Under the pieces are notes generated by a model. The model worked only from the letters and a program-made list of their open reading frames with translations, was not told the DNA's origin and ran no database searches. From Prevotella sp. (GTDB taxonomy: Bacteria; Bacteroidota; Bacteroidia; Bacteroidales; Dysgonomonadaceae), in NCBI GenBank assembly GCA_031285625.1, contig JAITVV010000048.1, positions 1 to 64,000 of the forward strand: a DNA stretch of 64,000 nucleotides. The letters are read 5' to 3'. Every line of letters starts with the position of its first letter. Position 1 is the stretch's first letter. Below, piece by piece: positions 27,005 through 63,115 of this stretch. Position numbers and translations under genes: made by a program.

Positions 27005-27073
27005 TAAAAAAAGAAGCCCGCAACATCACATCGCAGACTTCCTGTACCTTAACACAAACTTTACAAACTACAC
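27005..27073 (-). ncRNA. Candidate small RNA, paralogous family copy 1
   Basis: Minus strand UGUAGUUUGUAAAGUUUGUGUUAAGG + GAAGUCUGCGAU-GUGA-UGUUGCGGGCUUC-U7; the G-U pairs form only in this orientation. Confidence 0.7.
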
Positions 27074-27078
27074 AATGA

Positions 27079-27126
27079 TATAACTGTATAGCAAGCAAAA
27101 AAGTTCAAAAGGTTTTGTTAATTAAC
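27079..27126 (-). promoter_or_regulatory. ECF-like promoter with upstream palindrome
   Basis: GTTAATTAAC-N10-GAAC-N18-GTTATA, same spacing as 50732-50779. Confidence 0.6.
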
Positions 27127-27142
27127 AGTATCTAGTATTTTT

Positions 27143-27949
27143 TTAGAAATAAAATTTGAGCATACCATCAAAACGCTCCATGTAGCGATACAGATGTTTA
27201 CCTAAAATACGTTGCTGCTCTTTTTTTGAATTGAGTTCCATCTCCGCATATTTAGAAGTGTTTCCCTTATATGCATAATCAAATTGACGGGTGTTTACCT
27301 GAATAAGGATAAGGATTAGTGTAATAGATAATATAGTAGTTGTGAATAACCTGGCTTTTTCCCTAACCTTCTTAAATATAGCCGGTATAGTCAGATTAAT
27401 AATTATAGAACCTACTATTAATAAGAAAATATCATAGTTATTCCACCACCATATCTTACCAGAGCCTCCGACATAATCGACTGAAGGCCAAAACATAGCG
27501 ATTCCGCCCCATACCGATGACGAAGTAGGCAGATCGCCGGCTAGATGTGCCCATGCCGCTAATATGAATACAGCTAAATATATCAGATGGCTTTTACATA
27601 AAGATGGTAACACTATTTGCTTTTTGCTGAACACCTTTTGGAATAAGAATATTGAGGATACCAGCAAGAGACCAAAGAGAATACTTGCTATAATAGAATG
27701 GAAAAAGGCATGATGGGAATACCAAAACTTACTTCCATAAATGACTTTTCCAGTATGAGACAGATCGAAAAGACGACCGAATATACTATCAAAACGAGAC
27801 CACATACTAATAGCGTCTATATCGGGGAAAGCTCCTCCGACAGTACCTATGAGTATAATCTTTGCCTTCCTAAGAGGTGTAGCACCAACATAAGTTGCAG
27901 CACATGTAGCCACAGCTGTTCCCGATAAGGCATGAGTGAGTATGTCCAT
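27143..27949 (-). CDS. Membrane-bound metal-dependent hydrolase (YdjM/DUF457-like)
   Basis: MDILTH, PDID, HH.FFHS, H..GD motifs with hydrophobic segments. Confidence 0.85.
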   Translation of the reverse strand: MDILTHALSGTAVATCAATYVGATPLRKAKIILIGTVGGAFPDIDAISMWSRFDSIFGRLFDLSHTGKVIYGSKFWYSHHAFFHSIIASILFGLLLVSSIFLFQKVFSKKQIVLPSLCKSHLIYLAVFILAAWAHLAGDLPTSSSVWGGIAMFWPSVDYVGGSGKIWWWNNYDIFLLIVGSIIINLTIPAIFKKVREKARLFTTTILSITLILILIQVNTRQFDYAYKGNTSKYAEMELNSKKEQQRILGKHLYRYMERFDGMLKFYF

Positions 27950-27957
27950 GATAACAG

Positions 27958-28977
27958 TTAAGTCTCCTCTTCGGTAAGGAATGGGATAATAAGCTCATTT
28001 GTAGAAGAAGGAAGCAACTTCGTTTTTATATAGAAACGTTGTTTATCAAAATATTCAATGCGTTGCCTGGCATTACATTCCGTGATTAAGGTGGTATAGC
28101 GCTTCAATGATTGGATCCATTCTTTTTGCCTTCTACACATTTCAATATCGTAAGAACCTAAAATTTCGGCTGAGGCTGTCCAATAATGTACACATGATTT
28201 ATTATCATATTCGATATGGACATAACTAGGTTCCAGATCTACGGCAGATATATATACATTAACATTGACGCCTCCCTTATTAACTCCGGTTTTTGCTATA
28301 TTCTCCATAAAATCGGTAGCTCGCAAGAGTTCCTGTTGAAATAAAGCTTGTTCTTCGTCTGTTATCAGTCCCCGGTTAACATAATAGTTAATATCTTTTA
28401 TCATGGATAAGAACAGATTATTATCCGCTAATATGGTTATCTCACAATCCAGCTTTATATTACTATCAAGATAATTCTTATATATTTCTTTAATTTCTGT
28501 GGGTACAACAAAATCTTTAAAATAGAAGTCAGAGGGTACATTTTGTGTATGATAGAACCATTTATAATAATAAAATTTAGCAAGATTCTCATAGTGAAGT
28601 GTATAAGCATATGGTAATCTATTTAATACCAGTTCGACCTTGGCAACCTTTGCATCTTTTACCTTTGTTAGCAGATCCAAATTCATCTGCATTATTTCCA
28701 GATAGGTATTTATCGGATCAGTAGATTTAGACATCTGAAAATCAAACAGCACACTATCTTTATAACTAAGGCCAATAATATGGTCTAATGAGATTCCCAG
28801 TTTGGGAACGATAGTACATATTTCCTCAAAGGTGAAAGGTATCTCATTTCGAAGCCTGCGATATACCGATTCCTTATTCAGATCAAGGATATCTACTAAA
28901 TAAGCTACTATTTTTTTTGTTTCAGGGATATGCTTTTGCAGGGCATCAACCAGCATCTTGTTCTTCTTATTTTTCAT
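27958..28977 (-). CDS. N-terminal HTH putative transcriptional regulator (Bacteroidetes family)
   Basis: LVDILDLNKESVYRRLRNEIPFTFEE...LGISLD. Confidence 0.8.
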   Translation of the reverse strand: MKNKKNKMLVDALQKHIPETKKIVAYLVDILDLNKESVYRRLRNEIPFTFEEICTIVPKLGISLDHIIGLSYKDSVLFDFQMSKSTDPINTYLEIMQMNLDLLTKVKDAKVAKVELVLNRLPYAYTLHYENLAKFYYYKWFYHTQNVPSDFYFKDFVVPTEIKEIYKNYLDSNIKLDCEITILADNNLFLSMIKDINYYVNRGLITDEEQALFQQELLRATDFMENIAKTGVNKGGVNVNVYISAVDLEPSYVHIEYDNKSCVHYWTASAEILGSYDIEMCRRQKEWIQSLKRYTTLITECNARQRIEYFDKQRFYIKTKLLPSSTNELIIPFLTEEET

Positions 28978-29332
28978 ATAGTCGCCATAACAATAGTCTG
29001 CTATAAAGTTAACAAATAATTATACTTATTTGCCTATCTTGGAAACAAAGATCATTCATTTTTTTAACTTATTATAAAATTCAAAGCTTTGTATCTTTTC
29101 CTTTCTCGCTGCATCAGTTACAATCGAGGAATTATACTATTTTACTTTTAATATTTTAATATTATCCTTATTATCAAGTAATTTCAATATATAATCATCA
29201 TAAGGACAAGCCCAGTAACAACCCGTAACTGCAAGCCTACTATTATCAGGAGAAATAAGAATATCAGTCCAGATAAAAGGATATATGTAGAAAACAAATT
29301 ATATTTACATAAAAGATGCAAAACATTAACTA

Positions 29333-29821
29333 ATGAGATTACGAACAGAGATAGAACCACGAATAGATATAGCCAAAGAACATTATCAGACAATATTAGA
29401 TTATGTTACAGGGTATGAAAGTTATGTGGATGAAAAAGGTGATGAGAATAACGAAGAATACAAGAGAATAGAAGCTAAAATTCAGGATATCACAGGCAAA
29501 GACATGTCTCGTTATAATTTATGGGAAACATGGGAAGCAGAAGGTCCCGAAGTGCTTTCATTCAGGATAAGCTTACCCGATCCAAATAAGATAACGGACT
29601 TAACAAGAGAAGAGTTATTGGAAATCATAAGGCGAACAAGGGATTGTGATGTGTCTAAAATAGATAATGATTCTTTTGAAAGTAACTTTATCTATTATTT
29701 AGATGATTATTATCATAGCTTTTTAAAACTTAATTGCAAAAATTATAATTATAACTACTTCATACGACAAAAAGATGGCAGTACTCTGACCAATGATGAG
29801 ATAGTGAATAAATTAACCTAA
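29333..29821 (+). CDS. Hypothetical acidic protein, possibly orphan immunity protein
   Basis: 162-aa ORF; C-terminal half (ITDLTREELLEII...TNDEIV) loosely recalls colicin/pyocin DNase immunity proteins. Confidence 0.55.
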   Translation: MRLRTEIEPRIDIAKEHYQTILDYVTGYESYVDEKGDENNEEYKRIEAKIQDITGKDMSRYNLWETWEAEGPEVLSFRISLPDPNKITDLTREELLEIIRRTRDCDVSKIDNDSFESNFIYYLDDYYHSFLKLNCKNYNYNYFIRQKDGSTLTNDEIVNKLT

Positions 29822-29841
29822 CAATTCATTACTTATAATAA

Positions 29842-30570
29842 ATGAAAGAAAATAAATATGATGATCAGGCTTTCTTCGATCAATATAGTCAAATGACACG
29901 TTCTGTAGAAGGATTGAAAGGAGCGGGAGAATGGCATATCCTAAAACAGATGTTACCTTCCTTTGAGGGCAAACGAGTGTTAGATCTCGGATGCGGCTTT
30001 GGATGGCATTGCCGGTATGCTATCGAACAGGGAGCAACCTTTGTGATGGGAATTGATATATCCGAAAGAATGATATCTGAAGCCCTGAGTAAGAATAATT
30101 CTCCCAGGATTGAATACAGATGTATGGCAATTGAAGATTTTGACTATTGTCCTGATACATTCGATATAGTTATTAGTTCATTGGCTTTTCATTATTTGGA
30201 ATCATTCGACGATATAAGCAACAAGGTTTACAGATGCCTTACCGGAAACGGACAATTTGTATTTTCCGTAGAGCATCCGGTCTTTACAGCCTATGGCAAT
30301 CAGGACTGGTTCTATGATCAGGCAGGTAATCGTTTACACTGGCCTGTTGATAGATATTTCGACGAAGGACGACGTAATGCATCTTTTTTAGGTGGAGATG
30401 TTATTAAATATCACAAAACACTAACTACTTATATAAATGGCTTATTATCCTCAGGTTTTAAGATAACAGCACTGGTAGAACCTGAACCGGATAATACCAT
30501 GATGGAAATACCGGGAATGTTGGATGAGTTGCGGAGGCCAATGTTTCTTATTATAGCTACTGAGAAATAA
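29842..30570 (+). CDS. Class I SAM-dependent methyltransferase
   Basis: VLDLGCGFG, GIDIS, ISSLAFHY, FSVEHP. Confidence 0.93.
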   Translation: MKENKYDDQAFFDQYSQMTRSVEGLKGAGEWHILKQMLPSFEGKRVLDLGCGFGWHCRYAIEQGATFVMGIDISERMISEALSKNNSPRIEYRCMAIEDFDYCPDTFDIVISSLAFHYLESFDDISNKVYRCLTGNGQFVFSVEHPVFTAYGNQDWFYDQAGNRLHWPVDRYFDEGRRNASFLGGDVIKYHKTLTTYINGLLSSGFKITALVEPEPDNTMMEIPGMLDELRRPMFLIIATEK

Positions 30571-30573
30571 TTA

Positions 30574-31215
30574 CTATTGCCCTCCTCTGTATACTTTCAC
30601 AAATAGCACAACCATACAAATAGATAAAAATAAGACTGATAGATCCGAATAGGTCTGTAATGACATAATTACAACATCAGCCTCAGGTTCCGTTAAATTT
30701 ATACTGAATTTATAGAAAGTATAATATGTCTCTACAATATTGCAAACGACTCCAACCGCATTAAGAATGAAAGCAATCCCTAATATTTTTAATCCTCCGA
30801 TCCTATCATTTTTGAATTGCAAAAGATTAATCCCGATGATTATGTACAATACAATACGCAGGATAGCCAAAAGATTGAAAAAAAGAGAGGTAATCCCCAT
30901 TAAATAATGAAATTGAAGAGGTAGAACATGTATAAGAACATTTACAATTAATTGTATTCCAAGAGTAATTAAGATAATGTAGATAGCTACCTTGATCTTT
31001 TCTTGTTTATAATTAGTTATATATTGACTAAAAAGAAAGAGTACACACATATTCAATAAATAAAAGGGAAGAAATGCAAGCGTACCGGATATTGTCCAGC
31101 CAATTATTGACCTGAATATATGTGTGTAGATAATTGAGATAAAACAAGCCAGTAAGCTAATACCTACTACAGTCTTCAGATATGATTTCTTATTTATCAA
31201 TTGTTCTGTATTCAT
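30574..31215 (-). CDS. Hypothetical multi-pass membrane protein
   Basis: About six hydrophobic segments; D.IGGL..LG motif shared with 63116-63853. Confidence 0.7.
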   Translation of the reverse strand: MNTEQLINKKSYLKTVVGISLLACFISIIYTHIFRSIIGWTISGTLAFLPFYLLNMCVLFLFSQYITNYKQEKIKVAIYIILITLGIQLIVNVLIHVLPLQFHYLMGITSLFFNLLAILRIVLYIIIGINLLQFKNDRIGGLKILGIAFILNAVGVVCNIVETYYTFYKFSINLTEPEADVVIMSLQTYSDLSVLFLSICMVVLFVKVYRGGQ

Positions 31216-31695
31216 TATTTTTAGAAATATTTCTTGTTAATAAGTGAGAGAATATCTATTGCTATTTCTATACTAAACACAATGTACATAAATATACAAA
31301 TAGTGTAAAAATTTATTAATGATTATCTATCAAGCGGTTGCATTGTTAAAAAGAAATCAAAAGGTATTTTTTAACTTAATTTTCTTGATTATACAGAAAT
31401 TAAGGTTAATTTTGTCTTGTATTCACATGACACAAAACAGATGAACTACTTTAGCTTTAAATTTTTACCTATAATTTCTTTTTCTTTCTTAATGAGAACA
31501 GGTAGTAATTTTATTAAAAAAATTCCTTTTATAGCTTATCTGTTCAACATATTCATGCAAACACTAACCACAATATATCATTCATCAGAATTAATGACTC
31601 CTCATTATTATTTACAACGTGTAAAAAATAAACACTTTTATCAAAAGAGAGTTCAAATTTCGTATTGAAGGGTGTATAAATCTGAAATTATAATT

Positions 31696-31782
31696 ATGTA
31701 GACGCCTGACGTTAACACAAACACACTATTACTAGACTACAGGCGCAACCCTCAGGGAGAAATCCGCTGGGGGTTTCTTTTT
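31696..31782 (+). ncRNA. Candidate structured small RNA carrying the complement of the paralogous sRNA core
   Basis: CGCCUG...CAGGCG stem enclosing UUAACACAAAC...UUACUAGACUA, then terminator AACCCUCAG...CUGGGGGUU-UCUUUUU; no convincing gene upstream on the + strand. Confidence 0.55.
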
Positions 31783-31861
31783 ATAGATTATTTGTACACT
31801 CCTCTTAGCTTATATGAGCTTTTTGATATATTTTTGTGTTTGAAAAGTATAGGAGGATATT

Positions 31862-32716
31862 ATGTCGAAAAATTCTACGGATCAAAATTATAAACCTATT
31901 TCTGTTGGTATAGTAATATCTACCTACAACAATCCGGAATGGCTAAAAAAGACATTATGGGGTTATACTACTCAGTCACATTCTGCATTCGAACTCATTA
32001 TAGCAGATGATGGCTCAGACAATCGAACCCGTGAACTTGTTGAAAGCTTTAAAAAAGATTATTTTCCGGATATAAAGCATGTGTGGCATGCAGATGAAGG
32101 ATTCAGAAAATGTAAAATTCTGAACGAGGCATTGATTGTAGCTGAGTCTGAATATCTCATCTTTACAGATCAGGACTGTATTCCGCGTAAGGATTTTATC
32201 GAAACACATCTTAAATATGCCCAGAAAGGCTATTTTCTTTCAGGCGGATATTCCCGGTTACCAATGGACTTGAGTAAATCTATTTCCTTTGATGATATAA
32301 CTTCAGGAAACGCATTTAATCTTGACTGGCTCAAGACGCATGGATTGAAGTCTTCTTTTAAAAATACAAAATTTACCAAATCAAGCAGCTTCGCTTCTTT
32401 TATGAATTTCATTACTCCTGCCAAAGCTTCCTGGAACGGATGTAATTCATCTGGATGGAAAGAGGATATGTTAGCAATTAACGGTTTCAACGAGGCCATG
32501 CAATATGGAGGACTGGATCGCGAATTTGGCGAAAGGCTTGTCAATTTTGGAATCCGTTCGAAGCAAATAAGGTATTCAGCCATATGCCTGCATCTGGATC
32601 ATGCCCGCCCATATAAGAAAATCGACCTTATAAAAAAGAATAAGGCAATTCGCCGCAATGTGAGAGTAAACAAGATTGTAAGAACCCCATTTGGAATAGA
32701 AAAGACAGAAGAATAA
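31862..32716 (+). CDS. Glycosyltransferase family 2
   Basis: ISTYN, IADDGS, FTDQD, GCNSS, NGFNE, D.EFG.RL. Confidence 0.93.
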   Translation: MSKNSTDQNYKPISVGIVISTYNNPEWLKKTLWGYTTQSHSAFELIIADDGSDNRTRELVESFKKDYFPDIKHVWHADEGFRKCKILNEALIVAESEYLIFTDQDCIPRKDFIETHLKYAQKGYFLSGGYSRLPMDLSKSISFDDITSGNAFNLDWLKTHGLKSSFKNTKFTKSSSFASFMNFITPAKASWNGCNSSGWKEDMLAINGFNEAMQYGGLDREFGERLVNFGIRSKQIRYSAICLHLDHARPYKKIDLIKKNKAIRRNVRVNKIVRTPFGIEKTEE

Positions 32717-32745
32717 CTTTATCTTCTTCGAACCTTTATATAATA

Positions 32746-32768
32746 AACGCCCGGAATATCCGGGCGTT
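32746..32768. terminator. Bidirectional terminator
   Basis: aacgcccgga-ata-tccgggcgtt. Confidence 0.85.
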
Positions 32769-32807
32769 CTTGTTAATCAAAAAAGAAAAGTCTCCTTTAC
32801 CTGATCT

Positions 32808-33773
32808 TTAAACTTCAGGCTCTTCCTCAACGCCATAAGTATCAGACACAATAAATAATTCAGTATTCTCAGCTTCAAAATCCAATTGCTGATAACCGGA
32901 TTCAATCTTGTCATCTTCATTAATCACTCCGTTACCATTAATATCAGCTATTCTTAAAGCTCCCAACTTAATTTTATCTAAATCAGTCCCTGTTGCATAT
33001 TCCGGAGCTTCATCTATTTGTGCCTGAGTTGTAAATAGCCCAACTACCTGATAATTTTCACGCAAGAATGTCTTTTCTCCATTTTCTACCTTATAAAATA
33101 AGTCTTCAGTATAGTAATGTGAAAATGCTACTTTACCTTCCGTATCTGTTTTAGCACTATCTACCAATACATATTTGTCATCACTGAACTCGTAGAATTT
33201 GATAAATGCGCCATTAGATGTTTTTTTCTCATCAGCTCCCTCAGCCCATTCTTCGTTGACTTCATAAACTGTAAAATTGCTAATTGTTGCAGGGGTTGCA
33301 GGAAGTACATCGGTAATCACATATATCTGACTATTTCCAGCCATTACCGGTTCTGACGATTCCATTGATATACCATTAACAAGAACTTTTCCGTCTTTCA
33401 TTGTTAACTTAATAGACTCCTTATTAATAGCCCTGATTATAACTGTATCCTTATCACTTTTGGGTAAACTATGTATACCTGTTGCAATATGGCGTACTAT
33501 ATTGTCTTTCGTGATAGCACCATCTGCACTCAAGGTACTTTCAGTCTTATCCTCCACAGCAAATACAGTAATGGAATCTGTCCCGACATCAATACCATCT
33601 GTACTTTTTAGAACCTGAGTAAAATCAGTTACCCCTTCCATCGTTTCAAGTTTACTGATCACCTGTTTTAATTCTTTATTGTTCTCTATTTTTGGATCAT
33701 CATCGTCACTACATGCTACAGATGAAAATACCAAGGTTAACATTGCAATACTTAAATAAAAAAACTTTTTCAT
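32808..33773 (-). CDS. Lipoprotein with fasciclin-like domain and SusC-loop-like C-terminus
   Basis: Lipobox VAC-SDDDD; ITVFAV..RHI..IYVITDVL (FAS1-like); GLF....ID...G.....DINGNGVINEDD. Confidence 0.65.
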   Translation of the reverse strand: MKKFFYLSIAMLTLVFSSVACSDDDDPKIENNKELKQVISKLETMEGVTDFTQVLKSTDGIDVGTDSITVFAVEDKTESTLSADGAITKDNIVRHIATGIHSLPKSDKDTVIIRAINKESIKLTMKDGKVLVNGISMESSEPVMAGNSQIYVITDVLPATPATISNFTVYEVNEEWAEGADEKKTSNGAFIKFYEFSDDKYVLVDSAKTDTEGKVAFSHYYTEDLFYKVENGEKTFLRENYQVVGLFTTQAQIDEAPEYATGTDLDKIKLGALRIADINGNGVINEDDKIESGYQQLDFEAENTELFIVSDTYGVEEEPEV

Positions 33774-34017
33774 AAATTAAACATTTAATTAATAATAATA
33801 TTTATTGTACTTATAACCTGTTCTATAGTCCATAATGGACTAGTACAACCGCAATGTTTAATTGTGAAAGTGATTCTGATAAATAGAATAAAGGAAGGGC
33901 ATAAAGCACCTTCGGGCATAAATTAATTAAAAGACGGAGTAGTTTGAAGTATGCTGCATAAAGTGATTTTAATTTAACATTCTTTAATGTGTCCTGGAGA
34001 CATAAAAAAAATAAAGC

Positions 34018-34055
34018 TAAAAAAAACCGTCCTGAAATGGGCAATTTCAGGACGG
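34018..34055 (-). terminator. Strong intrinsic terminator
   Basis: ccgtcctgaaat-N5-atttcaggacgg followed by a T-run on the minus strand. Confidence 0.85.
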
Positions 34056-34146
34056 GGAGGATAACCAAAAGCAATCCTCATTTTCGGGAACTTCATAACT
34101 ACCTTATACTGAGGCTTACAACCTTACACAAAACTTCAATTACTCA

Positions 34147-34371
34147 TCAAGCAGTATGCTCGCTTTTTATATTAGAATGCAAACAATATATGCAACCTCT
34201 TATCTTTCTTAAAGGAAATAAATCTTTGGCTTTTATTATAACTTCTTCAGCTGTGGAAAACAATCCTAGGTATGTCCTGTTTAATGAATCAGAACAATAA
34301 GGGCATCCATTTTCATGAACTTCATAGGATCCACTAGCTTGTTGGTCATCGTCTAAATAATAATGGATCAT
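34147..34371 (-). CDS. Small Cys/His-rich putative metal-binding protein (start MIHYY at 34371)
   Basis: EVHENGC...YLG.F...GCIYC pattern. Confidence 0.7.
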   Translation of the reverse strand: MIHYYLDDDQQASGSYEVHENGCPYCSDSLNRTYLGLFSTAEEVIIKAKDLFPLRKIRGCIYCLHSNIKSEHTA

Positions 34372-34537
34372 TTTATAATGATTGCAATAATAAAAAACAT
34401 TACATAGATAGTAAAGAGTATTGCTATTTACAAGGCCATACAACTTTTTAAACTAACAATCAAACAATAATCATTTGATTATTAAATATTTTAATATCCC
34501 CAAAAGTGTACTTAATATGACTTTTAATTAAAGGAAA

Positions 34538-34567: not shown

Positions 34568-34602
34568 AAAGAGAATTACTCTTCAATTTCAAGCTTTTTA
34601 TA

Positions 34603-41489: not shown

Positions 41490-41492
41490 TCC

Positions 41493-50407: not shown

Positions 50408-50534
50408 GTAACAAAAGTGACACTTTTATGATACATTTTTAAGTGTCACATTTTCTTGTTAGCTATTACGCTTCTCTTAGTAATTCTTAAAAAAGTAACA
50501 AAGGTAACAGTTCCGAATATGTTTTATTTGTTAC
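50408..50534. repeat. GTRAC-AAAR-GTRAC direct/inverted repeat cluster (largest of five intergenic instances)
   Basis: gtaacaaaagtgac...gtcac and gtaacaaaggtaac...gttac; related motifs at 103-154, 13451-13555, 24756-24796 and 63905-63922. Confidence 0.6.
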
Positions 50535-50731
50535 TTTTTTCCTATACGATATCAAAGACCTCTTTATATAAGATAATTTTACAATTTAAATACTCCTCTC
50601 GTAAGACTATAAAATATCATGCTTTATTAAACATCTAATATACTGCAAAATAACCTTGATATAAATTAATTCAAAACAAACGGATTCTTTGGTGAAGTAA
50701 ATACCAACCCCCAATAAATATTAAAAACTTA

Positions 50732-50779
50732 GTTAATTAACTAAATAGCCTGAACATAATATTATTATATGTGGTTATA
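50732..50779 (+). promoter_or_regulatory. ECF-like promoter with upstream palindrome
   Basis: GTTAATTAAC-N10-GAAC-N18-GTTATA. Confidence 0.6.
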
Positions 50780-50783
50780 GGCT

Positions 50784-50849
50784 ATGTAGTTTTGTAAAGT
50801 TTGTGTTAAGGTATGAGAAAGTCCTGCGACGTGAGGTTGCGGGCTTTTT
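50784..50849 (+). ncRNA. Candidate small RNA, paralogous family copy 2
   Basis: AUGUAGUUUUGUAAAGUUUGUGUUAAGG + AAGUCCUGCGAC-GUGA-GGUUGCGGGCUU-UUU. Confidence 0.72.
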
Positions 50850-51555
50850 AATTTATAATACTACTATTTCTTATTTTGCTTAGATCTACAATTTTTGTTT
50901 CCTCCATCGCCTCCTCATTCCGAAATGTGATCTCTATCTTATGATCAGGCATCTTTTTTATAACATTCTCATCTCCGTTTTCAAATTGCCATTCCCAAAC
51001 AGGAAAATCAAAAAGATTATTCCATTTGTTTTCTTTATAGCTGAAAATATAATATGTATTGGTACTCGACCAATCTGCATAATTGACTAAATATAGTAAT
51101 TCATCGCCTCCATCGCCATCCAGATCTCCTTTATTATCCATAAAATACAGACCAAACAGTTGTCCTCCGGCATCAATAGTAGTAACAGTATCCGTTACAT
51201 TATTTTTGTTGATAATATAGATTACGGGATCTAGTTTCATTGTCCGCTCCACCAATTCATCATAACTTATTTTATCTCCATATAAAAACAATGGAGAAGC
51301 TATCGCTCTATTGAGAACCCGGCTATAATAACATACATACAATGTATCTGTTTTCCCATCTCCCTTCCAATTACCAGTAACCATTTCCGGAGTATAACCA
51401 CTCAGAGATTGCGGAACTTCTTGAATATCCCAGTTTAAAGGAACTTTATTATCTGCAAGGCAAATCGAATCAATAATTACATTTCCGTTATTTGCTGTTT
51501 GATTTTTATTGCAGGATATAGTTGCTATAAAAAGTAAAATAATAATTTTTTTCAT
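50848..51555 (-). CDS. Hypothetical lipoprotein
   Basis: Lipobox ISC; GDLDGDGGDEL Ca-binding-like loop. Confidence 0.75.
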   Translation of the reverse strand: MKKIIILLFIATISCNKNQTANNGNVIIDSICLADNKVPLNWDIQEVPQSLSGYTPEMVTGNWKGDGKTDTLYVCYYSRVLNRAIASPLFLYGDKISYDELVERTMKLDPVIYIINKNNVTDTVTTIDAGGQLFGLYFMDNKGDLDGDGGDELLYLVNYADWSSTNTYYIFSYKENKWNNLFDFPVWEWQFENGDENVIKKMPDHKIEITFRNEEAMEETKIVDLSKIRNSSIIN

Positions 51556-55121: not shown

Positions 55122-56387
55122 ATGAAACTAAAACTTTACTTATTACTATGTTTGGGCATATTCTGTTCCAAGCATACAAGTGCTCAAGTGACCATGGGGT
55201 CGAATAATCCACCAGAGGATTTTGCTATATTGCAACTTGACGGAACAAGCCAGGGATTACGTTTATCCAGGCTAGATACTAATCAGAGAGACCAGTTGAC
55301 AAATACATTAGACGCAACAGGAAAACTGACAGCCCGCGGATTGATGATTTTTAATACAGAGACAGGGTCTATTGAATTCTTTGATGGTGCAGACTGGAAA
55401 GGTCTCTCTAAAGCTCCGACCTTTGACAATGGTATTGAAAAAGATGGCGTAACCGGAAATGTTATTTTAGGGGGTAACCTACGTGAGGACACTGAAATAT
55501 CACAAGGTGCAAACAAATTGAATTTTACAACTACTACAGGCCTGTTCACTGTTAATACAGATCTATTACAAATTGGTAGTACAAATGTGACTGCCAGTAA
55601 TGCCAATTTTTCCATCAATAATGGAACTAATGATGTCATTAAAATAACAAAAACTTCTACCGGAAGCCAGATAGATGCTATAGTCGGAACAACAGGATTG
55701 AATGTTAATAATGGCGTATTTACAGCTGCAACAGGGAAAGTAACGATGGCTGGTACCGGAGGCAAACTGTCTTATACTTATCCTGTAGCATCAGGTGCTG
55801 CCGGTGACGCAATCAAGCCAAAAGCAGGAAGGATTATATTTGCTGCTGATACAAAAGGATTGGCCAGATGGGGAGATATAACTCCTTCAACAGAGATTCA
55901 ACCATTTAATATAACCAGAAATCAGGGATATCATGGCACGAATGGTACGCCAAGTAATCAGGATAAAATAACTTCGACGACCACAGAACCTAACCTCACT
56001 TTTCAGGCTATAACAGATCCATTGACATTATCAAAGGGAAGGTGGCTTATAGCTGGAATGGTTTATACATATACATATGCATATGCAACATCAGGTACTG
56101 CTAATAAATTTGTATGGACCAGGATTTGCAGAAATAACAGTGGAACATATTCACCTTTATTTACTACTGCCAACTTGGCCGAGCTTAAGACTGGGACTTC
56201 GACTAATGCCAACTCAGGAGCATATACAGCTATTCAGATAATGTATATACTGAATGTAGAAACAGCAGGGCAATACAGAGTAGAGATGACTACTGCAATG
56301 CCTAACACGACTATGGTTGCAGGGTGGACAGGTACCAGCCAGTTAAGAGCTGTTAAGGTAAGTGACAGAGCCGCAAGTGAGGACTAA
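55122..56387 (+). CDS. Secreted Thr/Gly-rich fibre/adhesin-like protein, paralog 1
   Basis: Signal peptide-AQ; QVT.GS..P..F..LQLDG...GL.L.R...GL.I.NT....EF.DG..W module; LTLSKGRW C-terminal domain. Confidence 0.7.
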   Translation: MKLKLYLLLCLGIFCSKHTSAQVTMGSNNPPEDFAILQLDGTSQGLRLSRLDTNQRDQLTNTLDATGKLTARGLMIFNTETGSIEFFDGADWKGLSKAPTFDNGIEKDGVTGNVILGGNLREDTEISQGANKLNFTTTTGLFTVNTDLLQIGSTNVTASNANFSINNGTNDVIKITKTSTGSQIDAIVGTTGLNVNNGVFTAATGKVTMAGTGGKLSYTYPVASGAAGDAIKPKAGRIIFAADTKGLARWGDITPSTEIQPFNITRNQGYHGTNGTPSNQDKITSTTTEPNLTFQAITDPLTLSKGRWLIAGMVYTYTYAYATSGTANKFVWTRICRNNSGTYSPLFTTANLAELKTGTSTNANSGAYTAIQIMYILNVETAGQYRVEMTTAMPNTTMVAGWTGTSQLRAVKVSDRAASED

Positions 56388-56405
56388 TAATCTTATACAC
56401 AAATT

Positions 56406-57611
56406 ATGAAAGTTATGAATAAATTATATATATATACATTAATTTTATTGTTTACAGTATTTTCTGTGAACGAGACCTTTGCTCAGGTTACTGCCGGGTC
56501 GAATAAAGTTCCTGCCAGCTTTAGTGTACTACAGCTTGACGGTACTACGGGAGGTTTACGCTTACCTCAGATATCAAATAAAAGCCTTATCAATATCAAT
56601 TCCTCATCTTCTGCAGCCAGAAAACTTCTGGCTAGAGGACTTACCATCTATGACACTAACACCGGATGGGTAGAATATTGGAACGGGACAGACTGGGCTC
56701 CTGTATCTCAATCTTTATCAGTAACAAATGGCATAAAGGAATATACAAACTATATCGGTTTAGGAGGTAATCTAGCTGAAGATACGCCTATAAACCTAAA
56801 GACATTTAATCTGAATTTAAAAACAAACTCGACATTAGGCAAATTCATTGTTAATACTAACGTATTACAGATTGATAACAGAAACATCCGCTTTCAGCCA
56901 TCCCGTTTCTCTGTAAACACGAATCTTCTTTCTGTAACAAGTGATGCAATTACTTTAAATCCATATCTAGGTGGTACCGGTATTTACACCCTTAAATCAG
57001 TAAAAACTGATGGAACAGATACTGGAAATTCTATAGTGGTGACAAATAATAATGTGCAAGTAAACGGAGATCTTTCGTACCGAGATAACGGGGACAATCC
57101 TGTAACTGTTGGTCATGCAATGGTTTCTATGGATAATGGTGATGCTTATTGGGCACCATTAAAACCCGAAACCAGTTTTAGATATGGAACATTTCTATCA
57201 AGTGTAAGTATCACAAGAACTTCGACAAGTGATACATATTATACGAATATGACTACAACTCAGATCTCAGATACTCCTCTAACATTAACTCCAGGAAAAT
57301 GGATGATATTTGCTTCTTATGCCACTACTTCTACAGGCACTGCAGCTCAGAATGTAAACTATGTCTGGACATATTTGTATAAGCAGCCAACGAGTGGAGG
57401 AACAAAAGAATTAGTGACTGTTATGGGAAAGCCAACATCTTCGAATGATGCAAGCAGGACAACATTTCCCAATCTTGTATATGTTGTAGATGTTACGGAA
57501 GAAACAAATTTTACTCTCGAAAGCGGAACAAGGAATTATACTACATCTTTATCTTATAGCTATGATGCACCTTCATTCTTCGCAATGTCGATCATTGAAG
57601 CAGGTAAATAA
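56406..57611 (+). CDS. Secreted fibre/adhesin-like protein, paralog 2
   Basis: Same N-terminal module; LGGNL..T; LTLTPGKWMIF. Confidence 0.7.
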   Translation: MKVMNKLYIYTLILLFTVFSVNETFAQVTAGSNKVPASFSVLQLDGTTGGLRLPQISNKSLININSSSSAARKLLARGLTIYDTNTGWVEYWNGTDWAPVSQSLSVTNGIKEYTNYIGLGGNLAEDTPINLKTFNLNLKTNSTLGKFIVNTNVLQIDNRNIRFQPSRFSVNTNLLSVTSDAITLNPYLGGTGIYTLKSVKTDGTDTGNSIVVTNNNVQVNGDLSYRDNGDNPVTVGHAMVSMDNGDAYWAPLKPETSFRYGTFLSSVSITRTSTSDTYYTNMTTTQISDTPLTLTPGKWMIFASYATTSTGTAAQNVNYVWTYLYKQPTSGGTKELVTVMGKPTSSNDASRTTFPNLVYVVDVTEETNFTLESGTRNYTTSLSYSYDAPSFFAMSIIEAGK

Positions 57612-57631
57612 TAATACAAAATAAAATAATC

Positions 57632-58843
57632 ATGAAATATAATATATATATACTGAGCATATTATTTACATTCCTATGTGTAAATAAATCATATAGTCAG
57701 ATTACAATAGGATCAGATATAGAACCTGCAAGTTTTTCCCTTGTTCAGGTAGAGGGTAGTGATGGAGGAGTACATTTACCGCGGATGACATCAAGTGAGA
57801 TGACCACACTCGGTGCATCGATGATAGGTAATAGCGAATCACAAGCACTCGTTGTATACAATACATCTGATAACAGAATGGAATTCTGGGATGGCAGTGT
57901 ATGGGTACCTCTAACAGCCACAAGTATATCAGGTAGCAATGCAATCACAAGTGTAGTTACGCCACAAGGGTTAAAGCTGGGTGGGGATTTAACGAAAACA
58001 ACAGAAATTGACATGAAGGATTTCAACTTTAGCTTCAAATATAATACAGGTACATCCGAACAGCTTTCGATAGGATCTGTTAAAGTAAAAAATGATGAAG
58101 TTGATCTTACTATCCCTGCAACAGGTGCTTTTACAGTTAATACCAACGCTCTGAATGTGAATTCATCCAATCGAAATATTGGTATGGCAGCCGAAAAGGT
58201 TACTGTAAATCAGGATCTTTTAACTATAGAAGATGCTAGTGTAGCAGGAACAGGAGTAAAAGGTACCTTAAATTACCCGCATTCATCAAAAGGCTCCGGT
58301 TATTTACTGGTAAGCGATGATACAAATGGAAATACTTCCTGGGGTGCTGTCAGACCGATGGGTACAATTGAAACGGGAACATTAAGTGATAATACCTTTT
58401 TCTGGAATGGCAACGATCAAAATATTACGACATCATATCTTAAATTATCACCTGGGCAGTGGATGATATTTGCTAAATATACAGGAAGAATGGTGTCTGC
58501 AACTGCCTTAATGTACCAATGGCTACAATTAGAAAAAACTACCACTAACCCTAACAGTGGAAGTCCAACATGGACATCATTAGGACGAGGAGGAGCCAAC
58601 CCTGAGTTAATAACAACAGGAAGTACTTCAACTTTTTTGTATTGTACACCATCTTATAGTCGTATGGTCAATATAACAGAAACTACTTATTACAGGGTGG
58701 TTGCAATGACTAGTAATCCTCGAAATACTACAAGTACTAATACAACGACTATGCAGCGTAATACAAGAACAGTCCCTGATTTTGGAGGTTCATATTTCTA
58801 TGCTGTCAGAATAGATGTGGAAGATCCTTCAAATCCATATTAA
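57632..58843 (+). CDS. Secreted fibre/adhesin-like protein, paralog 3
   Basis: Same N-terminal module; LGGDL...T; LKLSPGQWMIF. Confidence 0.7.
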   Translation: MKYNIYILSILFTFLCVNKSYSQITIGSDIEPASFSLVQVEGSDGGVHLPRMTSSEMTTLGASMIGNSESQALVVYNTSDNRMEFWDGSVWVPLTATSISGSNAITSVVTPQGLKLGGDLTKTTEIDMKDFNFSFKYNTGTSEQLSIGSVKVKNDEVDLTIPATGAFTVNTNALNVNSSNRNIGMAAEKVTVNQDLLTIEDASVAGTGVKGTLNYPHSSKGSGYLLVSDDTNGNTSWGAVRPMGTIETGTLSDNTFFWNGNDQNITTSYLKLSPGQWMIFAKYTGRMVSATALMYQWLQLEKTTTNPNSGSPTWTSLGRGGANPELITTGSTSTFLYCTPSYSRMVNITETTYYRVVAMTSNPRNTTSTNTTTMQRNTRTVPDFGGSYFYAVRIDVEDPSNPY

Positions 58844-58864
58844 TTTGATTATAATCTCGATATC

Positions 58865-58900
58865 TAAGCCTAATCAGAATTGATTAGGCTTATTTTATTT
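58865..58900 (+). terminator. Terminator of the three-paralog operon
   Basis: taagcctaatca-gaat-tgattaggctta-tttt. Confidence 0.85.
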
Positions 58901-58932
58901 TCTATATTTGTTTATTATAGAGACCATCAAAT

Positions 58933-59694
58933 ATGAGACAAACAATATTCATAATACTACTATTTACATGCTTAGTCGTATGTCAATCACAAACCAATTA
59001 CCCGGTTGGAGTTCAGAGACTATTAGAAGCATATTCATCTAGTATAACAGGATACGATGGAACTTCCATAATACTGAGAGATGGCAGTAAAATAGCTTAT
59101 TCAGAGGGAGAAAATAAGTCTCATAATGAACTGATGAATAGTAATGACATAGGAGATATATTCACTTATCCATATATAAAGGGAGAAGTTAAACATATAC
59201 CGAAGAATTATGATCCGGGACGTATTCGAAATGAAGAATTATTAAAAAAGATGTATGGTTCTACTTCTGCAGAAGTTCAGAAAAGTTTGGTTACAATTAT
59301 TTGGTGTCCAAAACTTGTGAACCAAAAATTAAGGATTACAAATATCAATGGTGTTGCAGAACAATTACAGAAAATCTCAAAAGAGTTAGACAAACATCCT
59401 GAGCTAAGAGATTATTTATATAGTGCCGGAACATTTAACTGGCGCAAAGTCAGAGGAACAGACAGACTAAGTTCTCATAGTTTTGGTACAGCTATCGATC
59501 TGAATGTAAAATACTCTAATTATTGGCAATGGGACTGTCGCTGCACATCTGAAGATACTGATTTAGAGTATAAAAATAAAATACCGCAACTAATAGTAGA
59601 TATTTTTGAAAAGTACGGTTTTATATGGGGCGGAAAATGGTATCATTACGACACTATGCATTTTGAATACAGACCCGAATTATTAGTAAATTAG
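58933..59694 (+). CDS. M15-family D-Ala-D-Ala/L-Ala-D-Glu metallopeptidase
   Basis: FNWR..., SSHSFGTAIDLN, WGGKWYHYDTMHFEYRPE. Confidence 0.92.
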   Translation: MRQTIFIILLFTCLVVCQSQTNYPVGVQRLLEAYSSSITGYDGTSIILRDGSKIAYSEGENKSHNELMNSNDIGDIFTYPYIKGEVKHIPKNYDPGRIRNEELLKKMYGSTSAEVQKSLVTIIWCPKLVNQKLRITNINGVAEQLQKISKELDKHPELRDYLYSAGTFNWRKVRGTDRLSSHSFGTAIDLNVKYSNYWQWDCRCTSEDTDLEYKNKIPQLIVDIFEKYGFIWGGKWYHYDTMHFEYRPELLVN

Positions 59695-59768
59695 AAGCCC
59701 TTTTCTATTTAATAAAAATTGTCTTTCCTGTAATATTTTGTAGCTTTGTTTGTCCAAAAATCAAAGCC

Positions 59769-61628
59769 ATGAAAAAACTGATCGTATTAACTTTCTTCCT
59801 CATCTCATTTTTTACTTTATATGCCCAACAAGTACTTTTTCCCAGAGAAGAAAACACATGCAGGATAATGTCGTATAACATTAGGAATGCAAGAGGGCTC
59901 GATGAAATAACTAATTATCAACGGATAGCAAATATTATAGAGAAAGTTTCTCCCGATGTTATTGCTTTACAGGAACTGGATAGTGTAACACAACGAAGCA
60001 ATAAGGCTGATGTATTGAAACAACTAGCCGACATCACCAGAATGCATGCGATATATGGTGCTGCTATACCTTTTCAGGGAGGTAAATATGGTATTGGCAT
60101 CCTTTCCAAAAAACGTCCTTTATCATGGAAAAACATTCCTCTTCCGGGACGGGAAGAAGTACGGGCACTGCTCATGGTCGAATTTGATAAATATATTGTT
60201 TTTGCTACCCATTTTTCGCTTACATCAGAAGATCGTATAACATCAATAAAGATAATAAATGAGCTGGCAAATCATTCTGATAAACCGGTATTCTTAGCTG
60301 GAGACCTCAATGCAGAACCAGATTCATCCGAGATAAAGACATTAGCTACGAATTGGAAAATTCTGAATAATACTAAAGATGCGACCTTCCCGGCAAATAA
60401 TCCTGTAAATAAAATAGATTATATTATGGGATATGCAAAAGGAGGTAAGACTTACTCGGTGCATCAGGCCAAGGTTGTGGATGAGCCTGTAGCGTCGGAT
60501 CACAGGCCATTATTTGTAGATGTACGATTAAGTACAAGCGAAGATAAAGTAATGCGTACACAGCCATATCTGCAAAATCCGTCCACAGATGCAATGACTA
60601 TAATGTGGATGACAAATGTGCCTTGCCGTAGTTGGGTCGAATATGGGACAGATAGCACTAACATGCAGCGTGCACGTACATTTGTGGAAGGGGAAGCTAT
60701 GGCAAATAATACTATTAATCGTATCCGGCTGGAAGGACTTAAACCCGGTACAAAATACTACTACCGTGCTGTATCACAGGAAATAACTCTTTATCAACCA
60801 TACAAGAAAGAATTCGGAGATACTGTACGCACAACTTTATCTTCCTTTACAACATGGAATGATAATCTAAAAGATTTTACAGCTCTGGTATTTAATGATC
60901 TTCATGACAATTATGATCTTTTTGATAAGTTATATGCCCAGGTAAAAGATAAAAAGATTGATGTTATTATATTTAATGGTGATTGCATTGCAGATGTACA
61001 AAGTGAGGATGTTGCCGTAAAGAGCATTTCTCATTACTGTGAGGTAGCTGGCGGAAATAATATACCAACAATCTTTATCAGAGGAAATCATGAGACAAGA
61101 GGAGCATACTCGATGTTTTTATGGAATCTGCTGGAGAAAAAAGGAGGAACACATACTTATGGTGCGTTTAATCTGGGAGATACACGTTTTGTTTTGCTTG
61201 ACTGCGGAGAAGACAAGCCGGATGATCACTGGGTATATTATGATATGAATGACTTTACCCATTACCGCCAGGAGCAGGCTGACTTCCTGCGAAAGGAGTT
61301 GGCTTCCTCTGAATTCAAAACGGCTAATAAACGCATCCTTATTCACCATATACCTCTCTTCGGGAAAAATATGGATGAGTATAATCCGTGTAAAGACTTC
61401 TGGGAACCGATACTGGCAAACGCTAAGTTTGACGTTTCGCTGAATGCACATACTCATGAGTTTGAATACATTCCAACCGGGAAGGAGCAAAATAACTACC
61501 CGGTAATGATAGGTGGAGGTCCTAGTGAGAAAAGTGGCGTAGTTACTGTTTTGGAAAAAAAAGGGAATAGCATGACTCTCACTGCTATAAATGTAAATGG
61601 AGCGGAAGTACTAAAGCTTGATTTGTAA
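59769..61628 (+). CDS. Fused EEP-family phosphatase + FN3 + calcineurin-like metallophosphoesterase
   Basis: SYNI, LQE, GDLN, IDY, SDH (EEP); DLH, NGD, RGNHE, HH.P, AHTH (MPP). Confidence 0.9.
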   Translation: MKKLIVLTFFLISFFTLYAQQVLFPREENTCRIMSYNIRNARGLDEITNYQRIANIIEKVSPDVIALQELDSVTQRSNKADVLKQLADITRMHAIYGAAIPFQGGKYGIGILSKKRPLSWKNIPLPGREEVRALLMVEFDKYIVFATHFSLTSEDRITSIKIINELANHSDKPVFLAGDLNAEPDSSEIKTLATNWKILNNTKDATFPANNPVNKIDYIMGYAKGGKTYSVHQAKVVDEPVASDHRPLFVDVRLSTSEDKVMRTQPYLQNPSTDAMTIMWMTNVPCRSWVEYGTDSTNMQRARTFVEGEAMANNTINRIRLEGLKPGTKYYYRAVSQEITLYQPYKKEFGDTVRTTLSSFTTWNDNLKDFTALVFNDLHDNYDLFDKLYAQVKDKKIDVIIFNGDCIADVQSEDVAVKSISHYCEVAGGNNIPTIFIRGNHETRGAYSMFLWNLLEKKGGTHTYGAFNLGDTRFVLLDCGEDKPDDHWVYYDMNDFTHYRQEQADFLRKELASSEFKTANKRILIHHIPLFGKNMDEYNPCKDFWEPILANAKFDVSLNAHTHEFEYIPTGKEQNNYPVMIGGGPSEKSGVVTVLEKKGNSMTLTAINVNGAEVLKLDL

Positions 61629-61752
61629 AGCCTTCAATCTCTGCTTATCTTTCATATTTCACAAAAATATTTTTCGGACAAAATATACTATTATATTTCT
61701 TTTTAGTTTTTTTGGTATAAATTTTGTTGCTGTTCATTCTATACACTTCATT

Positions 61753-62883
61753 ATGAAACAGAAAACAAAAACAAGACTAAAAAAAACTATGTTAATAGCT
61801 ATATCTATCATTGGCATTCTAATCATTGCCGGAATCATATTCTTAAACTCACCTAGATTTGGAAAGACTCCGTCCGGCGATCGACTGGAAAGGGTGAAGA
61901 GCTCGCCTAACTACAGGGAAGGTAAATTTCAAAACCAGAGCTATACAATTCAATTAACCGGTGATAAGAATATGTTTCTTACAGGTTTAGATTTTCTATT
62001 CGGAAAAAAAGAGAGGTTAACCCCTACTGTAGCATTACCAACAATAAAAACCGATCTTATAAACTTGAATAGGGAATCTGATATTTTAGTTTGGTTTGGT
62101 CATTCATCTTATTTTATGCAAATTGATGGTAAACGAATCCTTGTAGATCCGGTATTCAGCGATGTATCACCTGTTTCTTTTATAAATAAACCGTTCAAAG
62201 GTACCGATATCTATAAACCAACCGACATGCCTGATATCGATTATCTGTTTATATCCCATGATCACTGGGATCATCTGGATTATAATACAGTTATGGAGCT
62301 AAAAGATAGAACAAGTAAGATCATTTGTGGTTTAGGTGTTGGCGAACATTTCGAACATTGGGGTTTCGACAAGAATAAAGTAATTGAATTAGATTGGAAT
62401 GCAGTCTCTACCCTGGATGAAGGATTTAGTACATACTGTCTTCCCACCCGTCATTTCTCCGGCAGAGGATTATCCCCGAACCAATCACTCTGGGCATCGT
62501 TCTTATTACAAACTCCCACAATGAAAATATATATTGGTGGCGATAGCGGATATGATGCTCATTTTGCAAAAATAGGCGAACAATTTGCAGAAATAGATTT
62601 AGCTATATTGGAAAATGGACAATATAATCAGGATTGGAAATATATTCATATGATGCCCGAAGAGGTAATACAGGCCGCAAAAGACCTACATGCTAAAACT
62701 CTACTTCCTGTTCATTCTTCTAAGTTTGCTCTTGGGTATCACTCTTGGGACGAACCTCTGAAAAGAATTACTGAAGCAAACAAGAAAGAAAACCTGCGTT
62801 TACAGACACCTATGATTGGAGAAATCGTAAATTTGAAGGATAGCACACAAACCTTTAAAGAATGGTGGGCTGGTATTGATTAA
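61753..62883 (+). CDS. MBL-fold metallohydrolase (RomA/NAPE-PLD-like)
   Basis: WFGHSS, DPVFS, SHDHWDHLD, RHFSGR, GDSGY, IHM.PEE. Confidence 0.92.
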   Translation: MKQKTKTRLKKTMLIAISIIGILIIAGIIFLNSPRFGKTPSGDRLERVKSSPNYREGKFQNQSYTIQLTGDKNMFLTGLDFLFGKKERLTPTVALPTIKTDLINLNRESDILVWFGHSSYFMQIDGKRILVDPVFSDVSPVSFINKPFKGTDIYKPTDMPDIDYLFISHDHWDHLDYNTVMELKDRTSKIICGLGVGEHFEHWGFDKNKVIELDWNAVSTLDEGFSTYCLPTRHFSGRGLSPNQSLWASFLLQTPTMKIYIGGDSGYDAHFAKIGEQFAEIDLAILENGQYNQDWKYIHMMPEEVIQAAKDLHAKTLLPVHSSKFALGYHSWDEPLKRITEANKKENLRLQTPMIGEIVNLKDSTQTFKEWWAGID

Positions 62884-62904
62884 TACACGAGATAATATAA
62901 ATGC

Positions 62905-62968
62905 AAAAAGGTCCCGATATCACATCGTAGACCTCTTCAACCTTAACACAAACTTTACAAAACTACAT
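62905..62968 (-). ncRNA. Candidate small RNA, paralogous family copy 3
   Basis: Minus strand AUGUAGUUUUGUAAAGUUUGUGUUAAGG + AGGUCUACGAU-GUGA-UAUCGGGACCU-UUUU; both flanking genes are on +; AAAC-N17-GTTATA at 62998-62972. Confidence 0.72.
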
Positions 62969-63115
62969 ATATATAACGCCTGTTTCCTGAAATTGTTTTA
63001 TCAAAACCACCAATTTATTACTAAATAAGGATTATTTTTGCTAAAAAGTGTTTATCTTACTCTATTGATAAAACTCAAGTTGTATATATTCGCATGACAT
63101 CTTACTTTTAAAACG

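Follow-up and report, generated by a model that had tools for sequence, protein, structure and literature searches.

In this study, which was based on a 64,000-nucleotide stretch of DNA from the Prevotella sp. assembly GCA_031285625.1 of the Dysgonomonadaceae (hereafter the window: positions 1 to 64,000 of contig JAITVV010000048.1, C23:1-64000 in our numbering; the whole genome comprises 96 contigs and 4.84 Mb), we established that three dispersed intergenic loci belong to a family of real, selected and strand-specific RNA elements. Each element consists of an invariant, unpaired U/G-rich stretch, (GUAGUUUUGUAAA)GUUUGUGUUAAGGUU, which is followed by a strong terminator hairpin, whose tip is of the GNGA type, and by a U-run. 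The comparison of gene structures, as far as sequence can tell, further establishes that thiol peroxidase (tpx) is the gene whose 3' untranslated region (UTR) and terminator gave rise to the family, and that the family was expanded in Dysgonomonas into stand-alone units. It is a previously uncatalogued small-RNA (sRNA) family of Dysgonomonas and its relatives, which has no match in Rfam and is of a kind that is already known, i.e., multicopy, FopS-like and born from a 3' UTR. On balance, we consider the stand-alone loci to be probably the genes of an sRNA family that acts as a regulator in trans.

Exactly three matches to the 18-mer GTAAAGTTTGTGTTAAGG lie in the window (27047-27064 on the minus strand, 50794-50811 on the plus strand and 62941-62958 on the minus strand), and none of 100 dinucleotide-preserving shuffles of the window contains one (0/100). 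When read directly at the three loci, TGTAGTTTTGTAAAGTTTGTGTTAAGG was common to copies 2 and 3, and copy 1 had one T fewer (TGTAGTTTGTAAAG...). Each core is followed by a stem with a sequence of its own that still pairs, by a CGAY-GUGA apex and by a T-run, and the predicted hairpin energies of copies 1, 2 and 3 are -17.8, -17.8 and -15.2 kcal/mol. An earlier note on this DNA had described three loci with a shared core, the identity of copies 2 and 3 over it, the shorter T-run of copy 1 and the drifting but paired stems, all of which were borne out. The same applies to its assignment of the strand by G-U pairs: at 4 of the 14 stem positions G-U is found more often than any other pair, which fixes the strand.

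Copies from other genomes, one per species, were collected by scanning for an exact 20-mer, which yielded at least 113 stretches; L093, L102 and L075, which had no hairpin or ran off the contig, were left out of the later counts. All of the 117 distinct copies, which came from many Dysgonomonas species, fold into a hairpin straight after the core (117/117; mean -18.4 kcal/mol), even though they hold 97 distinct hairpin sequences. GUGA, GGGA, GAGA and GCGA, some of them extended by one base, make up most of the tips, and the median unit length is 69 nt, with the ends predicted from the sequence. RNAalifold found no structure in a MAFFT alignment, in which the two hairpin types were misaligned; the covariance model, R1, was built on a structure given by hand and the copies were then realigned with it. 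In the 106 model-aligned copies, standard pairs filled 96.2% of the cells, and both sides had changed at 13 of the 14 pairs, with 270 compensatory cells, whereas sliding the partner by one to three columns lowered the pairing to 43-55%; this alignment was fitted to the model, which favours structure, but the margin over the slid controls is large. The stretch of the family RNA that is named as the target of a Northern probe is GUUUGUGUUAAGG.

The origin of the family can be followed at tpx. Outside the genus, the element is, as inferred from the gene structure, the 3' UTR and terminator of this gene: at all ten loci (nine genera of the family and genome G141), the hit starts exactly at the TAG stop codon of an intact open reading frame (ORF) of 166-174 aa. 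These ORFs end in ...AINSIV (one in ...SIM), the TAG of the conserved GTGTAG being the stop codon, and the one that was checked (L260) is a thiol peroxidase (NF001808, 248.8 bits). Because the element starts at the tpx stop, the core must be part of the tpx transcript in those genera. The element lies on the same strand between the stop codon and the terminator at these ten loci and at 11 Dysgonomonas loci, which retain tpx directly before it; the three window copies stand alone and do not occupy such a position. Two sequence forms were found, GUGUAGUUUGUUUCAUGAAGAUUGUGUUAAC in six genera and GUGUAGUUUUGUAAAGUUUGUGUUAAG in four genera and in Dysgonomonas, and the alignment between the two is good, with a score that only 7 of 3000 shuffles attain.

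The copy type that this genome has at C6:31658 is found downstream of uvrA, in conserved synteny, in 24 of the 31 Dysgonomonas loci examined, and in 14 of those loci the element lies upstream of a release-factor gene. The uvrA-side tpx has been lost here (G000 C6:31443-31660): the gap between uvrA and the element is 215 nt long, its frame is broken, and all that is left before the sRNA unit is about 60 nt of decayed sequence from the end of tpx. Some other genomes show the same, and many relatives keep an intact tpx at this place. The intact tpx of this genome is unlinked from the element and has a plain terminator and a downstream sequence without the core. The retention of the remnant of about 60 nt after the loss of tpx suggests that the end of the gene contains a promoter for the RNA. 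In Dysgonomonas, the unit was copied to about seven unrelated intergenic sites and would have gained promoters of its own, whereas most genera of the family have no more than the single tpx-linked copy. Previously, it was stated in the earlier note that copy 3 cannot be a 3' UTR; this stands for copy 3 itself, which lies on the minus strand between two plus-strand ORFs (61753-62883 and 63116-63853), but not for the family overall, which descends from the 3' UTR of tpx. Proteobacteria have 3' UTR-derived sRNAs that share the terminator of the parent mRNA. The ancestral copy resembles them in that it starts at the tpx stop codon and uses the same terminator, and the new unit differs in that it was then duplicated into about seven free-standing genes. 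We know of no described case of a 3' UTR-derived sRNA that multiplied into free-standing genes, and our literature searches, in which the papers listed were judged by titles and the beginnings of abstracts, found nothing relevant on sRNAs of Dysgonomonas and nothing on a UTR-derived RNA of thiol peroxidase in Bacteroides.

Within this genome there are six exact cores and one core with a single mismatch. R1 gives seven strong matches (60-89 bits), four of which lie on the 102-kb contig of the window, and about four weaker, diverged ones (C83:26613, C4:26856, C28:160782 and C5:37904). Among 120 sampled genomes of the family, each of the 24 that belong to the genus besides this one has 2-17 copies at E<=1e-5, the median copy number in the genus being seven with the seven of this genome included; in the other genera of that sample, a match was found in 50 of 96 genomes and 13 of 20 genera, mostly as a single copy. 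In an order-level sample of 150 genomes, approximately one per genus, R1 matches only its own genus and G141. All of these distribution counts come from samples in which related genomes are not independent. The covariance-model search of the genome and the order, which had been proposed with the initial description, proved informative, and it corrected the expectation of a large genome-wide family that had been drawn from three copies in 64 kb: with about seven copies per genome, the family is modest. Among the 20-mer matches listed, nearly all are titled Dysgonomonas, including many metagenome-assembled genomes and the named species D. termitidis, D. gadei (ATCC BAA-286), D. mossii (DSM 22836), D. 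hofstadii and D. macrotermitis, together with a few records titled Prevotella, one Polaribacter and one Clostridiales assembly. The exact 20-mer is also present on four viral or prophage contigs of IMG/VR (L201-L204), three of which have a strong R1 match (60-89 bits) and one a weak match (25 bits). In other species, some copies are arranged in tandem or, with the strands opposed, tail to tail (L040:6847-7002, L094:1791-1946, L019:3782-3937 and L064:164-317), and further paired copies occur at L050:1529-1722, L070:3653-3853 and G167:C8:327490-327671. The second member of such pairs has a diverged core, e.g., GUGUAGUUUUUUUAAUUUGUCUUAAGGUU, or a core without UUAAGG, which suggests that new variants arise through local duplication.

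Upstream of the element, 70 clusters that were less than 60% alike were compared. The sequence becomes conserved abruptly at TGTAG (T 60, G 60, T 64, A 65, G 66 and the following T 69 of 70 clusters), the bases from TTTG onward being invariant owing to how the copies were collected, and no positional sequence conservation was found further upstream of TGTAG in the 70 clusters. GAAC is enriched at -43 to -40 (19/70 clusters against a background of 0.29 per position) and TTATA at -20 to -17 (21/70 clusters), and TTG showed no enrichment at the expected -33 box position in the same clusters. The arrangement (G/A)AAC-N17-18-GTTATA-N6-7-GTAG is present at all three window copies, and about a quarter to a third of the stand-alone copies have GAAC-N18-GTTATA. 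If these boxes function as their placement implies, they would start transcription at approximately (U)GUAG. A strict genome scan for GAAC-N17-19-GTTATA returned 13 intergenic matches versus 5 in a reversed-string control, which is too few for defining a regulon or finding a sigma factor. About 10 nt upstream of GAAC, copies 1 and 2 have a perfect palindrome, GTTAATTAAC, which is also found at L056 and L073 of other species and which may be an operator for a regulator of the copies.

By position, the arrangement GAAC-N18-GTTATA is like an alternative-sigma promoter or the PM2 promoter of GibS, an sRNA of B. thetaiotaomicron that is reportedly about 145 nt long. GibS is an intergenic, single-copy sRNA with two seeds. 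Its non-canonical PM2 promoter, which has -10 and -30 boxes, has been linked to stationary phase and to oxidative-stress genes (PMC7366714). The GAAC and GTTATA boxes stand at positions comparable to those of PM2, the comparison being one of position and not of sequence, and the new family is likewise tied to an oxidative-stress gene, tpx; it differs in its copy number, and no Rfam family matches its loci.

A parallel in build is FopS of B. thetaiotaomicron, which is described as 14 paralogous sRNAs of about 65 and about 70 nt that combine an unpaired 5' seed with a Rho-independent terminator; RbpB binds the single-stranded 5' part of these sRNAs, which repress the translation of susC, number 12-15 copies per Bacteroides genome and are conserved, by BLAST, within the Bacteroidaceae (PMC11697453). 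In our preferred reading, the new RNA would likewise act in trans via its unpaired 5' stretch, which would pair with A/C-rich mRNA leaders and/or bind an RNA recognition motif (RRM) protein of the RbpB type. Its regulon would be separate from that of the co-resident FopS RNAs and might be tied to oxidative or stationary-phase stress and to accessory genes.

Several observations weigh against this reading. The 20-mer that was used for collecting the copies forces the invariance of that part of the sample. The core part TAGTTTTG-TAAA-G fits the canonical -7 box TAnnTTTG of the Bacteroidota and the spacing of the FopS genes of this genome (TAtcTTTG-tact-G), and one copy in a relative reads TATCTTTG-TACT-GTTTGTGTTAAGG instead. 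Because TAGTTTTG-N4-G fits such a box, the 5' end of the RNA is ambiguous: some of the invariant core may belong to the promoter and not to the RNA, and the transcript may start at (U)GUAG (about 69 nt), at GUUUGUG (about 55 nt) or at both. Assembled contigs from four sequencing runs (two of RNA, one possibly of RNA and one of unknown kind) end at the repeat (50783-50812 and 62940-62968); their depth is flat over genes in the four runs, and it is raised at the repeat in the run of unknown kind too, which is expected because the repeat copies collapse in assembly. Just downstream of the major facilitator superfamily (MFS) transporter gene, about 120-130 bases of the window (50427-50560) are missing or different in the contigs of three runs, which indicates that this spacer varies between strains.

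The predicted targets count on the same side. When seed duplexes were scored against the -40 to +25 region of 3864 crudely called ORFs, 24 start regions reached -19 kcal/mol or lower as compared with 8-18 for six shuffled seeds, which is a weak excess, and exact complements of at least 10 nt were found in 31 start regions versus 16 in a composition-matched reversed-string control. In a comparison with a second genus (2.4 of 4.3 Mb, the same seed), none of the 1175 reciprocal best-hit pairs (median identity 67%) was a conserved target with both partners in the top 3%, whereas 0.34-0.7 were expected; the FopS seed, as a positive control, gave eight pairs versus 0.92 expected. Target prediction, which had also been proposed at the outset, delivered an approximately two-fold enrichment over shuffles and controls but no conserved ortholog target. 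At the starts of the 56 SusC genes, which were examined in silico, the new seed showed no preference (median -9.65 versus -10.0, p 0.94, none in the top 100), whereas the FopS seed of this genome did (median -14.45 versus -10.7, p 1e-12, eight in the top 100). Among the top predicted targets in the second genome, no functional theme was found. Of the top 100 start regions of the new seed, 68 belong to genes without a homologue in the second genome versus 49.8 expected (p 1.5e-4; FopS 46). As modelled, the family and FopS differ in their targets, and the targets of the family are not the conserved starts of core genes.

The top 20 start regions of the new seed include those of TssE, VgrG and two Hcp genes, and a type VI secretion hypothesis was formed post hoc from them. 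For the complete sets of six TssD and five VgrG genes, the 15-nt seed places 7 of 11 in the top 100 (hypergeometric p 2e-9) and the FopS seed 0 of 11. Of 30 other genomes of the genus, only 10 have Hcp, whereas the RNA is present in 24 of 24. In other genomes, the same level was reached by only 2 of 33 Hcp starts with the 15-nt seed and by 4 of 33 with the 28-nt seed, about 0.9 being expected, and this replication came mostly from one genome, G185, which is seemingly closely related. The type VI secretion enrichment is barely replicated elsewhere and is a lead only. A fuller proposal, that the tpx-born RNA escaped and multiplied to about seven genes under stress-type promoters and is a FopS-independent riboregulator of accessory, horizontally acquired genes, including the leaders of Hcp, VgrG, TssE and Rhs, is one that we regard as quite unlikely in its entirety; if it were true, the control of type VI leaders would link oxidative or stationary-phase stress to inter-bacterial warfare. 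The genome has a type VI secretion locus at approximately C80:160300-185300 (four Hcp genes, one of them at C80:163786-164178, ClpV, TssK, TssE, VgrG and Rhs) and scattered VgrG/PAAR/Hcp islands (C81:2962-5424, C91:6098-6400, C16:7627-9270, C87:2486-4414, C52:8155-9915 and C4:106926-108614), and CUUAACAC or UAACACAAAC stands just before the start codon in many type VI secretion leaders. In genome G160, three paralogous ORFs of 83-130 aa that have no homologue in this genome (C1:167704-168093 on the plus strand, and 1516717-1516965 and 2036531-2036824 on the minus strand) have a nearly identical leader (..gggtttgtttttcattttgccttgATG), which is like a repeated element.

The RNAs could also be mainly ligands or sponges of the RbpB-type RRM protein, in which case the U/G-rich stretch and the UUAAGGUU-hairpin would be a binding site and mRNA pairing would play no part. 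We regard this as possible, if rather unlikely. It is consistent with the binding of FopS by RbpB in the single-stranded 5' part (PMC11697453) and with the single gene of the RRM_1/Rbp_regulator type in this genome (C5:2143-2352 on the minus strand; PF00076 82.1 bits, NF058537 113.7 bits). Moreover, the invariant part exceeds 26 nt and is longer than pairing would require of a seed, the search for conserved mRNA targets was negative, and UUAAGGUU followed by a hairpin with a GNGA tip is common to both families, with R1 aligning to the FopS loci only over its 3' two-thirds (model positions 22-78; 14-24 bits). These partial scores, however, are mostly generic terminator signal, the binding of the new RNAs is putative, and FopS both binds RbpB and pairs with its targets, so the two modes are not exclusive.

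It is unlikely, in our estimation, that the element serves in cis alone, as a 3' UTR and terminator module that was copied as a convenient and possibly bidirectional terminator and has no function in trans. The ancestral and most widespread form is indeed the tpx terminator, all three window copies adjoin the 3' end of a convergent gene (25550-27004 on the plus strand, 50848-51555 on the minus strand and 61753-62883 on the plus strand), and the 1175 ortholog pairs yielded no conserved trans targets. A terminator, however, does not need an invariant unpaired leader of 26-30 nt that is more conserved than the stem, and copy 3 has no co-directional upstream gene to terminate. The G-U pairs make the hairpin strand-specific and poor on the opposite strand, position-specific promoter-like boxes stand upstream of the stand-alone copies, and the element was kept together with the tpx remnant after the loss of the uvrA-side gene. 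A role as a leader does not fit either: a co-directional downstream gene is present at four of the seven genome copies and absent at three, and the element is consequently not a consistent leader.

That the loci are diverged members of the FopS family is improbable. The two families have the same build, an unpaired 5' stretch before a Rho-independent terminator whose tip is of the GNGA type, with units of about 69 nt here and about 65-70 nt in FopS, and both are multicopy, with about seven copies here versus 12-15 per Bacteroides genome according to the FopS report (PMC11697453). That report also assigns a 3' UTR origin to one FopS member, and the RbpB-type RRM gene lies in the same genome as the new family. 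The sequence that is common to both is limited to an initial GUGU, UUAAGGUU immediately before the hairpin and the tip type; additionally, the tpx-linked form in six genera has a FopS-like UUUCAU, and the 5' parts align slightly better than shuffles (56-58 of 3000 reach the score). Once the UUAAGGUU anchor is removed, however, 1003 of 2000 shuffles reach the score of the 5' parts. The Rfam family of FopS, RF04319 (gathering threshold 56 bits), scores 61-82 bits at six other loci of this genome, whereas none of its 23 genome matches at E<=10 falls on the seven new loci, and it does not match the tpx-linked forms. Conversely, R1 finds nothing (best E 0.34) in G132, a Bacteroides-like genome (BTnc231 132 bits) that has eight FopS genes over the threshold. 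The FopS 5' part, as taken from the RF04319 matches, reads GUGUUUUUCAU(A/G)GUAUUAGAUUUAAGGUUAAC, and the 5' part of about 31 nt of the six FopS genes is nearly identical to those in G132, with one A/G difference; the Dysgonomonas form of the new family lacks the UUUUUCAU anti-start (CAU) that is seen in FopS members. Furthermore, the new family has no predicted preference for SusC starts or conserved start-region targets, and some of its copies have GAAC-N18-GTTATA and not a canonical -33/-7 promoter. Membership in FopS was dropped because the loci fail the covariance model of that family. Their separate positions, the failed RF04319 search and the unlike 5' parts mean that this genome carries two separate multicopy families of the same build. 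The comparison with Rfam that had been proposed earlier agrees with this: cmscan of the loci gave chance-level matches only, e.g., BTnc231 with 26 bits versus a threshold of 80.4 bits. The six FopS genes also extend the range of FopS to a family beyond the Bacteroidaceae, into a Dysgonomonas genome.

A miniature inverted-repeat transposable element (MITE) or another selfish repeat is extremely improbable: the copies are multicopy and dispersed, a few stand in tandem or tail to tail and the 20-mer occurs on viral contigs, but among 117 copies the longest word common to the flanks was at chance level (mean 3.90 versus 3.72 in re-paired controls), there were no terminal inverted repeats (longest end-to-end inverted word 2-6 nt), no transposase was seen among the neighbouring genes examined, the copies are orthologous and syntenic across species and the stems covary under selection. 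Target-site duplications and terminal inverted repeats were the features by which the earlier note would have recognised a MITE, and this reading was dropped on the same 117 copies.

The genes that flank the copies are unrelated to each other and are housekeeping genes. Copy 1 neighbours an NAD(P)HX dehydratase/epimerase gene and YdjM, copy 2 an MFS transporter gene and copy 3 a gene for a hydrolase with a metallo-beta-lactamase fold; the copies outside the window neighbour UvrA, a release factor, AraC regulators, DUF2867 and an aldo/keto reductase. The coordinates are collected in Table 1.

Table 1. Coordinates of the three window copies, their promoter-like regions and related genes of the same genome (a contig is given before the colon where one was recorded)
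Feature	Position	Strand	Details
Copy 1 unit	27005..27073	-	core TGTGTAGTTTGTAAAGTTTGTGTTAAGG (one T fewer); hairpin 27043-27011; U-run to ~27006
Copy 2 unit	50785..50849	+	core TGTAGTTTTGTAAAGTTTGTGTTAAGG; hairpin and U-run 50816-50849
Copy 3 unit	62905..62967	-	core TGTAGTTTTGTAAAGTTTGTGTTAAGG; hairpin and U-run 62938-62905
R1 covariance model match, copy 1	26996-27073		78.0 bits
R1 covariance model match, copy 2	50784-50864		76.4 bits
R1 covariance model match, copy 3	62890-62968		72.7 bits
Promoter-like region, copy 1	27079..27126	-	palindrome GTTAATTAAC (27126-27117), GAAC (27106-27103), 18-nt spacer, GTTATA (27084-27079), 7 nt to GTAG; putative function
Promoter-like region, copy 2	50732..50779	+	palindrome GTTAATTAAC (50732-50741), GAAC (50752-50755), 18-nt spacer, GTTATA (50774-50779); putative function
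Promoter-like region, copy 3	62972..62998	-	AAAC (62998-62995), 17-nt spacer, GTTATA (62977-62972); putative function
tpx of this genome	42152..42646	-	tblastn; NF001808 thiol peroxidase, 244.5 bits
FopS gene (RF04319, 61-82 bits)	C69:75313-75385	-	
FopS gene (RF04319, 61-82 bits)	C69:75584-75656	-	
FopS gene (RF04319, 61-82 bits)	C91:14919-14991	-	
FopS gene (RF04319, 61-82 bits)	C52:52316-52388	-	
FopS gene (RF04319, 61-82 bits)	C52:55376-55448	-	
FopS gene (RF04319, 61-82 bits)	C75:26545-26618	-	

The regulation by sRNAs in the Bacteroidota is known almost entirely from Bacteroides thetaiotaomicron. Here, another genus of the order is shown to have true FopS genes and a second multicopy family of the same build, with a different unpaired stretch and different predicted targets. 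The birth of this second family can be traced from the 3' UTR of tpx, through the loss of the parent gene with its tail kept, to free-standing copies and the expansion of their number, which makes it a clean case for the study of how regulatory RNAs arise. For cultured Dysgonomonas, it offers the hypotheses that these RNAs may be induced by stress, may bind the RRM protein and may control the leaders of type VI secretion genes.

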